Made by a program: the position numbers and the translations under genes | Assembly: GCA_050124795.1 (NCBI GenBank) | Contig: JASFEO010000002.1 | Coordinates: forward strand, 36,754-100,753 | Length of the DNA stretch: 64,000 nucleotides | Source: Candidatus Pacearchaeota archaeon | GTDB taxonomy: Archaea > Nanobdellota > Nanobdellia > Pacearchaeales > GW2011-AR1 | Direction: 5' to 3' | Part shown: piece after piece, positions 1,066 to 1,989 of the stretch | Position numbering within the stretch: position 1 is the stretch's first letter | Layout of the letters: each line of letters opens with the position of its first letter | The notes under the pieces: model-generated | Told to the model about the DNA's origin: nothing | The model's input: only the letters and a program-made list of their open reading frames with translations | Database searches by the model: none

Positions 1066-1989
1066 TTTATCCTGCGAGACCCCAAAACACGCAAAATTTC
1101 AAAATCAGATTTTCGCGACAGAATTATTCATCATGCAATTAATAATATCCTTGAACCAATTTTCGAAAAGGTTTTTATTTATAATAATTGCGCAAGCAGG
1201 AAAAATAAAGGAACTTTATTTGCATTAAAAAGATTTGAAAAATTCAGAAGAAAAATAACAAATAATTTTACATCATATGGTTACTGCATAAAGGCAGACA
1301 TTAAACATTATTTCGAGGAAGTTAATCACGAAATTTTGCTTGAAGTCTTGAAAAGAAAAATCAAGTGTGAAAAAACTATTTGGCTGTTCAGACGAGTAAT
1401 CGAAAGGTCTGAGAGAGCGAACAAGTTCGTGGTAGAAGAGAGTAATTTTGATTCGTCTCTCTCTCTCTCTCTCTCTCTCTCTTCGTGCGGGCTTGAGAGT
1501 AAGACGCGGAGTTCTTCATTAACAGCTAAAGGTATGCCCTTAGGAAATTTAACTTCGCAATTTTTTGCAAATATTTATCTTAATGAATTAGACAAATTTG
1601 TAAAACACAAGTTAAAAGCAAAATATTACATTCGCTATGTTGATGACTTTGTAATTTTGCATTCTTCCAAAGAACAATTAAAAATCTGGAAAAAAGAAAT
1701 TGAGATTTTTCTAAAAAATAGATTAAATCTTGAACTTCATCCTGATAAATCAAAAATTATAAATTTGTCCAAAGGAATTGATTTTGTCGGATTCAGGAAT
1801 TTTTATTATTACAAACTTTTGAGAAAAAGAAATATTAGAAATATGCAAAAGAAAATTAATTTATTTAATCAGGGAAATATTTCGTATGAAAAATTATTTG
1901 AATCCTTTGAAGGTTGGAATGCTTATGCAAAATAGAGTGATTCATATAAATTAAAAGGTAAATTGTTTAGGGCTATTAACGTTCTCTAA
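1066..1989 (+). pseudogene. DGR-type reverse transcriptase, 5'-truncated, with in-frame insert and probable nonsense codon
   Basis: Frame 1 from 1066: FILRDPKTRKISKSDFRDRIIHHAI, KADIKHYF, GMPLGNLTSQFFANIYLNELD, YIRYVDDF, GIDFVGF, GWNAYAK-TAG(1933-35)-SDSYKLKGKLF..TAA 1987-89. No start codon upstream of the RT motifs (in-frame stop at 1036-38). Confidence 0.85.
1411..1501 (+). repeat. Dispersed element family A, copy inside RT; contains (TC)13 at 1456-1481
   Basis: TTCGTGGTAGAAG (1426-38) ... CTTCGTGCG-ggc-TTGAGAGT (1481-1500), matching copies at 12325-12423 and 47206-47302. Confidence 0.75.

Follow-up and report, generated by a model that had tools for sequence, protein, structure and literature searches.

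A microsatellite between the catalytic motifs of an archaeal retroelement polymerase as a candidate phase-variation switch

A perfect (TC)13 microsatellite lies inside the reverse transcriptase (RT) gene of a diversity-generating retroelement (DGR) in a Candidatus Pacearchaeota archaeon, and our analysis indicates that it is probably a hypermutable tract in a disordered, insertion-tolerant loop of the enzyme, one instance of a repeat site that would serve as a contingency locus on the DGR polymerase. The DNA in question is a stretch of 64,000 nucleotides (assembly GCA_050124795.1, contig JASFEO010000002.1, positions 36,754 to 100,753 of the forward strand), hereafter the window, whose numbering is used below unless a contig or locus is named. 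In the RT genes of related archaea simple repeats are concentrated in the same loop, frameshifts go with those repeats, the gene halves on either side of a shift stay open and selected, and alleles of different length coexist in near-identical sequences. The tract of the window is itself a relic of the proposed switch, whose working instance is on a full-length twin gene of the same contig. A preliminary description, made from the letters of the window, had proposed a phase-variation switch here; the idea holds up for the gene family, given the repeat enrichment and the shifts, and fails for the window copy as a working 'on' allele, because that copy is without codons 1-64 and a start and carries a TAG.

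The TC tract and the loop that carries it

Tandem Repeats Finder (TRF) lists 1456-1482 as a perfect array of 13.5 TC copies; in the letters themselves this is (TC)13 at 1456-1481 followed by a T. A search of the window with a 12-mer TC pattern returned 9 overlapping matches, all within the (TC)13 tract, where shuffled sequences led us to expect 0.31. The tract is the sole dinucleotide array in the TRF table of the window, in agreement with the preliminary description, which had noticed no other long dinucleotide tract there. Across the genome (1,061,509 bases) the only dinucleotide tracts of at least 7 units are this one and the one in the twin gene (G000:C2:1190-1217), and the longest other has 6 units. 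TRF, the sequence and the translation also confirm that the tract is in frame, that it reads SLSLSLSLS and that it sits in a linker of 47 residues: the translation of 982-2040 runs ...KADIKHYFEEVNHEILLEVLKRKIKCEKTIWL, then the 47 residues including SLSLSLSLS, then KGMPLGNLTSQFFANIYLNELD...IRYVDDFVIL. The elements of the loop and its surroundings are as follows.

1291..1314, + strand: KADIKHYF, RT motif 3/A with the catalytic Asp, upstream anchor of the loop
1387..1527, + strand: 47-residue linker FRRVIERSERANKFVVEESNFDSSLSLSLSLSSCGLESKTRSSSLTA, between ...IWL and KGMPLGNLTSQ, frame preserved, a GC-rich insert
1456..1481, + strand: (TC)13 microsatellite, in-frame reading SLSLSLSLS, found by TRF, in the sequence and by the 12-mer pattern search
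1543..1566, + strand: GNLTSQFF, RT motif 4/B, downstream anchor of the loop
1635..1646, + strand: YVDD catalytic motif, 3' of the TC tract

Besides the TC tract, the linker insert (1387-1527) contains GA-rich remnants, namely GAGAGAG at 1411-1417, GAAGAGAG at 1434-1441 and GAGAG at 1495-1499, and it forms an island with a GC content of 0.43-0.48 in surroundings of 0.20-0.30. The loop of the window RT, taken as everything between KADIKHYF and GNLTSQFF, is 228 nt (76 aa) long. In 62 loci from genomes of species and 73 from metagenomes, most loops measured in the same way fall within 120-153 nt, lengths of 129 and 120 nt being common; in the 110 of the 120 best protein matches that have both motifs they span 39-78 aa, and only 9 reach at least 65 aa. 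The window linker thus adds 33 aa to the usual 43 aa, close to the excess of about 30 aa that had been estimated from the sequence. In an AlphaFold2 model computed from 25 aligned sequences, residues 126-165 of the 296-aa frame have a predicted local distance difference test score (pLDDT) below 50 and no secondary structure; the helices on either side span 109-131 and 168-190. The model thus predicts that the insert is a disordered loop on the surface.

Being GC-rich in AT-rich surroundings, with upstream GA-rich segments that could pair with (TC)n, the insert might also be a foreign element that is taken out or functions as RNA, for example a structured RNA, a mini-intron or a mobile element of small size, with the TC tract in its stem. 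We find this scarcely credible. Folding of 1375-1545 was no better than that of shuffled sequences on either strand (z of +1.43 and +0.03), which led us to reject a structured RNA or intron, and no Rfam family was matched at E up to 1 in window positions 1-4000. A mobile element was rejected as well: a 146-nt piece carrying the insert is present only in the two RT copies of this genome. The insert is moreover in frame and translatable, and its flanks are homologous to those of ordinary (GA)n loops in relatives; for instance, visual alignment matches its 3' flank to that of an (AG)13 tract in locus L206.

DGR RTs have a motif 4 of the form [LIV]GxxxSQ together with a catalytic YxDD. The window RT has PLGNLTSQ at 1537-1560 and YVDD at 1635-1646, both invariant across 25 aligned sequences, and a profile of 25 sequences found as its best solved relative 8ub7_A (E 4e-58), which we take to be a DGR RT, against E 3e-30 for the best group II intron RT.

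A truncated copy and its full-length twin

The genome holds two copies of this RT gene, of which the one in the window is referred to as copy 2 and its twin as copy 1. The two are related through the following features.

1045..1935, + strand: open frame of the RT remnant, copy 2, ending in TAG at 1933-1935; Pfam RVT_1, E 3.2e-26
1065..1538, + strand: 474-bp block 100% identical to copy 1 except for one TC unit; counterpart at about G000:C2 799-1274

RT homology of copy 2 starts at about 1066 (FILRDPKTRK...), so that codons 1-64 are missing, and the first ATG, GTG or TTG is a TTG at 1336, already past motif A. The TAG that ends the frame is TGG in copy 1. Copy 2 is a 5'-truncated, start-less, TAG-bearing remnant, which cannot give an active enzyme whatever the length of its tract. 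In place of the 5' end of the RT gene, window 71-1057 holds three consecutive small open reading frames (ORFs; 82, 110 and 129 aa) with no Pfam match.

A search of the archaeon's own genome found copy 1 some 37 kb upstream of the window copy, where the same contig (G000:C2) begins. It comes with a variable repeat (VR1) and a template repeat (TR1), an ATG 33 nt past TR1, a full N-terminus and a normal C-terminus. Its TC tract is (TC)14 at C2:1190-1217, one unit more than in copy 2, and with 14 units the frame shifts ahead of YVDD and meets a TGA a few codons later. The prediction that a single TC unit would shift the frame upstream of YVDD is thus realized in the twin. Both halves of copy 1 are otherwise open, corresponding without stops to residues 1-180 and 179-333 of a short-loop homolog, and apart from the shift at (TC)14 the gene is complete. 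To judge from this sequence, the only full-length RT of the genome would be off as assembled.

To the left of window position 1065 the two copies are unrelated, and from 1539 onward they are about 85% identical; for the 5' part of copy 1 (C2:560-800) there is no second copy in the assembly. The identical 474-bp block between these limits suggests a recent repair or conversion of copy 2 from copy 1 that was ended by non-homologous joining. The block ends 57 nt past the microsatellite, and a one-ended repair or gene conversion may have begun at the repeat.

The preliminary description had allowed that the tract might have expanded after the gene died. Two observations speak against this: the same TC insert also sits in the twin, which is otherwise intact, and recurs in two further genomes, with (TC)8 in locus L190 and (TC)14 in L175/L199, and the downstream halves of the two copies have diverged under purifying selection, with dN/dS of 0.10 past the shift over 130 codons at dS 0.86.

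The retroelement itself has left its mark at two places in the genome. In the core of TR1/VR1, 17 of the 19 aligned differences are A-to-G or A-to-T. The second cassette lies within the window, 5.5 kb from the RT remnant, and its core differences are likewise adenine-specific.

7063..7143, + strand: VR2, in the 3'-terminal part of target gene 6509-7162; its differences from TR2 fall at TR adenines
7477..7557, + strand: TR2, template repeat of the window DGR, with no RT gene after it

Since the differences are adenine-specific in both TR/VR pairs, an RT has acted on both. Nothing RT-like follows TR2. TR1 (L002 494-581) and TR2 are homologous and share the 3' end ...CGGAATAGTTTA; an RT gene follows TR1 alone. 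A single RT may work for both cassettes.

Repeats and frameshifts in the RT genes of relatives

Homologous loci came from several searches that differ in how they treat a split gene. Those ranked by the best tblastn segment are biased toward in-frame genes, and all of their usable loci were in frame (62 of 62 and 73 of 73), one motif pattern being absent in 18 of 80 and 16 of 89 loci; we left these sets out of the frame count. With the window protein as HMMER query nearly all matches were split at the long insert, so the open frames and sequences were used instead, and later a query with a short loop. Viral contigs gave only distant RTs (33-40% identity) and were not used.

Repeats in this loop are visible even at the protein level. 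Among the 110 protein matches with both motifs, the loop contains E/R runs (ERERER...) in 19 and LSLS in 3, and the E/R-run loops are at the DNA level perfect (GA)n tracts of up to 26 nt. When the 146-nt insert was searched in 200 genomes of the same family, (GA/TC)n tracts were matched in 19. We fetched seven such loci; in six the tract is directly upstream of the RT GNLTSQFF, and of the four with both motifs three are shifted. A protein search of 400 family genomes gave RT matches in 156, and by hand count about half of the matches to the C-terminal half lie in an open frame of just 150-217 aa.

For a frame count we assembled a family set of 67 loci (L182-L248), consisting of the 29 returned and the next 38 in listing order, with those at contig ends skipped. 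A loop was scored as bearing a repeat if it had a dinucleotide of at least 4 units or a G/C run of at least 7; stricter thresholds were applied in the density count below. Both motifs are present in 65 of the 67 loci; the frame is kept between them in 35 and shifted in 30. When eight full-length matches (L182-L189) that could only be in frame are set aside, 27 in-frame genes stand against 30 shifted ones. Frame state follows the presence of a repeat (Fisher exact p 5.5e-6).

Loops with a repeat: 28 shifted, 14 in frame, 42 in total
Loops without a repeat: 2 shifted, 21 in frame, 23 in total

The expectation that frameshifts would cluster at this loop is therefore borne out, 28 of the 30 shifted genes among 65 being shifted at a repeat. 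The parallel expectation, that simple repeats would be enriched at the loop in homologs, is supported by the density count, in which 38 repeats fall within 10,024 loop bases and 1 within the 131,203 other bases of the same loci, a difference of roughly 500-fold. Of the loop repeats, 29 of 38 begin 86-109 nt past motif A. They comprise (GA)n of 4.5-16.5 units, (TC)n, poly-G of 7-12 and poly-C of 7-12. The sequences on their 3' side are conserved, with poly-G followed by CGAAC in several families and (GA)n followed by CGCGA or ACGC (L207, L280, L283, L284, L286, L287, L182), and this conservation suggests that the repeat sites are old and maintained and have not newly arisen each time.

The pattern extends to other families of the class. 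A class-level search with the short-loop query found RTs in 91 of 401 genomes, with 92 full-length matches by hand count; a split near residue 180 was counted by hand in about 15 loci of the window's family and in fewer loci of other families. We fetched 15 split candidates from other families and one from the window's family. Among the 15, nine are shifted at the loop; in eight of these, across eight families, the shift lies at a repeat, which is G8-G12 in seven cases and (CT)9 in one. Five are in frame at the loop, have no repeat there and are broken elsewhere, and one is without motif B.

Genes shifted at the loop are otherwise hard to distinguish from intact ones. In 29 of the 30 shifted genes of the family set (the exception is L247) the two halves match those of intact genes in length and openness: the frame stays open for 141-203 codons ahead of motif A and for 147-168 codons past motif B. 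Purifying selection is evident behind the shift: L203 and L207, both shifted, give dN/dS of 0.081 in the C-terminal half and 0.088 in the N-terminal half. The remaining pairs for which the estimate was finite range over 0.04-0.24 in the C-terminal half, and five further pairs gave none because dS was saturated. On this evidence the shifted genes do not appear to be decaying pseudogenes. In a tree of the C-terminal half the presence of a repeat changes 19 times and the frame state 22 times, and neither is more clustered than shuffled labels.

Alleles that differ in tract length and frame are also found side by side in near-identical sequences. The cluster P0039 (at least 90% identity) contains four alleles, which cover the correct frame and both other frames.

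P0039 allele ...SERERERLDESF...: 350 aa, two members, in frame
P0039 allele with one extra ER: 352 aa, in frame
P0039 truncated products: 194 aa and 201 aa, leaving the repeat in the two other frames

Beyond this cluster, L162 with G11 and L163/L164 with G8 have flanks that are 100% identical, and the flanks of L097 (an interrupted tract, in frame) and L202 (G11, shifted) are 98% identical.

These results bear on a second reading, in which the loop is a functionless hotspot that tolerates drifting repeats, the shifted alleles are young pseudogenes and the tract of the window is junk. The reading is in keeping with a window copy that is dead, with a loop that is predicted to be disordered and whose length varies from 39 to 78 aa among homologs, and with the lack of an in-frame excess among repeat-bearing loops. 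It does not readily explain a roughly 500-fold enrichment at one position in at least nine families and by four repeat types, nor the persistence of perfect tracts, which need maintenance against point mutation, nor poly-G tracts that encode Gly-Gly-Gly by GGG codons in genomes of 30% GC. Together with the 29 of 30 shifted genes that have no second lesion and the dN/dS of about 0.1 behind the shift, these points make it distinctly improbable.

Some further repeats in the genome of the window were noted along the way. It has 98 G/C homopolymers of at least 7 nt at 32% GC, in the window at about 31613, 32735, 41576 and 46517, compared with 16-23 in first-order Markov simulations, and most of its G/C tracts of at least 8 nt are inside long open frames. 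In L295 (G000:C38) two G8 tracts, at 694-701 and 1826-1833, each mark the junction of overlapping frames (183 and 221 aa; 179 and 408 aa); these split frames resemble further repeat-split genes and match no Pfam family above threshold. A GC-rich direct repeat of 98 nt, 92% identical, occurs at window 11433-11530 and 55407-55504, 44 kb apart.

A proposed heritable switch by replication slippage

The reading that we favour is that slipped-strand mispairing during replication would add or remove units at a repeat site found across the archaeal class, occupied by (GA)n, (TC)n, poly-G or poly-C some 86-109 nt past motif A. Each change of a unit would move the catalytic half of the enzyme, comprising motif 4, YVDD and the thumb, into or out of frame, and a lineage would in this way turn its hypermutation engine on and off, randomly and heritably. 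Slipped-strand mispairing is the simplest account, because it covers the four repeat types, all tract lengths, both directions of shift, the coexisting alleles and the intact, selected halves. That DPANN archaea of this class control their DGRs by such a stochastic switch, made of a maintained repeat, a disordered RT loop and replication slippage, seems to us an evenly balanced proposition.

Several points weigh against a switch. The three frames among the 42 repeat-bearing loops stand at 14:13:15, a uniform distribution with no in-frame excess, which would fit expression that is blind to frame or an absence of selection on a switch. The clade of L195, L203 and L207 shares one frame offset over a dS of about 1, hinting that the shift is bypassed there. 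The tree of the C-terminal half is weakly resolved, with 1 of 64 inner branches starred, and cannot date gains and losses. The window copy is non-functional at any tract length. The genomes are related and mostly short-read metagenome-assembled genomes (MAGs), and the counts from two search tables (the 400 family genomes and the class-level search) were made by hand. Finally, it may be unsafe to say which copy has 13 units and which has 14, because the tract is within the 474-bp exact repeat and 57 nt before the first copy-specific base (window 1539), so that an assembler could have swapped the alleles.

This last point leads to the possibility that the tract lengths in MAG consensus sequences are simply wrong, both the 13/14 difference and those in the shifted relatives. 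Repeats are error-prone in library PCR and in assembly, the 13- and 14-unit alleles are in an exact repeat, and two loci (L180/L194 and L200) break at the tract at a contig end. Shifts nonetheless occur at short tracts that are usually called correctly, for example (AG)5 in L195 and G8 in L227 and L282; they recur in the assemblies of many projects, and they are far more frequent in loops with a repeat (28 of 42) than in loops without one (2 of 23). Even if the alleles were swapped between the copies, both the 13- and the 14-unit lengths must exist in the DNA of the sample. An artefact of this kind is very improbable.

The main rival to the switch is bypass at expression, in which RNA polymerase or the ribosome slips on the (GA)n, (TC)n or poly-G tract and every allele yields a small share of in-frame product, so that the repeat would act as a rheostat that keeps RT levels low and the frame read from the DNA would count for little. 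It would account for the uniform frames, for the intact halves and the purifying selection behind the shift even between two shifted genomes (dN/dS 0.081), and for the offset shared by L195, L203 and L207 across a large divergence. A programmed event would, however, be expected to favour one kind of site and one direction, whereas we observe four repeat types, tracts of 8 to 33 nt and both shift directions equally; no canonical slippery heptamer was seen in the loop of L203, the sole loop inspected for one, and the length alleles that coexist in near-identical sequences differ at the level of DNA. Transcriptional slippage is known mainly for A/T runs. We consider bypass unlikely.

A switch by slippage has well-described counterparts in bacteria, in the simple sequence repeat contingency loci of Haemophilus, Neisseria, Campylobacter and Helicobacter, which phase-vary by slipped-strand mispairing (review PMC11868660; surveys PMC3315296 and PMC2831843). 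The RT loci resemble these in having a perfect, locally over-represented repeat within a coding region whose frame is shifted by gain or loss of units, in the intactness of the rest of the gene, and in the occurrence of in-frame and out-of-frame alleles among near-identical sequences. They differ in their DPANN host, in that the gene switched is the polymerase of another hypermutation system and not a surface or restriction-modification gene, and in the position of the repeat, which is in mid-gene, in a surface loop between catalytic motifs, and not near the 5' end. In the present case, moreover, we infer switching from sequences, and the same holds for its rate, its reversibility and its effect on DGR activity.

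With the DPANN DGR RTs described in PMC4372165 and with 8ub7_A, the window RT shares the RVT_1 domain, the GNLTSQ motif 4 and YVDD; further points of likeness are the template repeat directly upstream of the full-length copy and the adenine-specific TR/VR differences. It is unlike both in its motif 3-4 loop, longer by 33 aa and with a microsatellite, and in the truncation of the window copy. A full-text literature search for phase variation, repeats or frameshifts in the RT genes of DGRs came back empty; Paul et al. 2017 (Nature Microbiology), which may bear on the point, was outside its scope. Word searches of Paul et al. 2015 (PMC4372165), Wu et al. 2018 and a 2026 Nanobdellota preprint found nothing on repeats in RT genes in the passages so reached, and the single 'frameshift' passage met in Wu et al. 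2018 concerns TR-VR indels. Repeat-based phase variation is already textbook knowledge in bacteria; the point of interest here is the family-wide pattern in archaeal DGR RT genes.

The on/off control of DGR mutagenesis is an open question, since it should be costly to keep rewriting a binding protein that is useful. If the proposed switch is real, it would be, in the literature searched, the first contingency locus reported from Archaea and also the first known case in which DGR activity is regulated through the RT gene. There is also a practical consequence: because about half of these RT genes appear split in assemblies, surveys that demand an intact RT ORF will under-count DPANN DGRs and may label cassettes as lacking a polymerase. 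For the cells themselves, a heritable random switch would explain how the sequence of a useful variable protein can be frozen, and it would give a population in which 'diversifying' cells live alongside 'frozen' ones. Phase variation through repeats, as found in host-adapted bacteria, would then extend to ultra-small archaea with few regulators.

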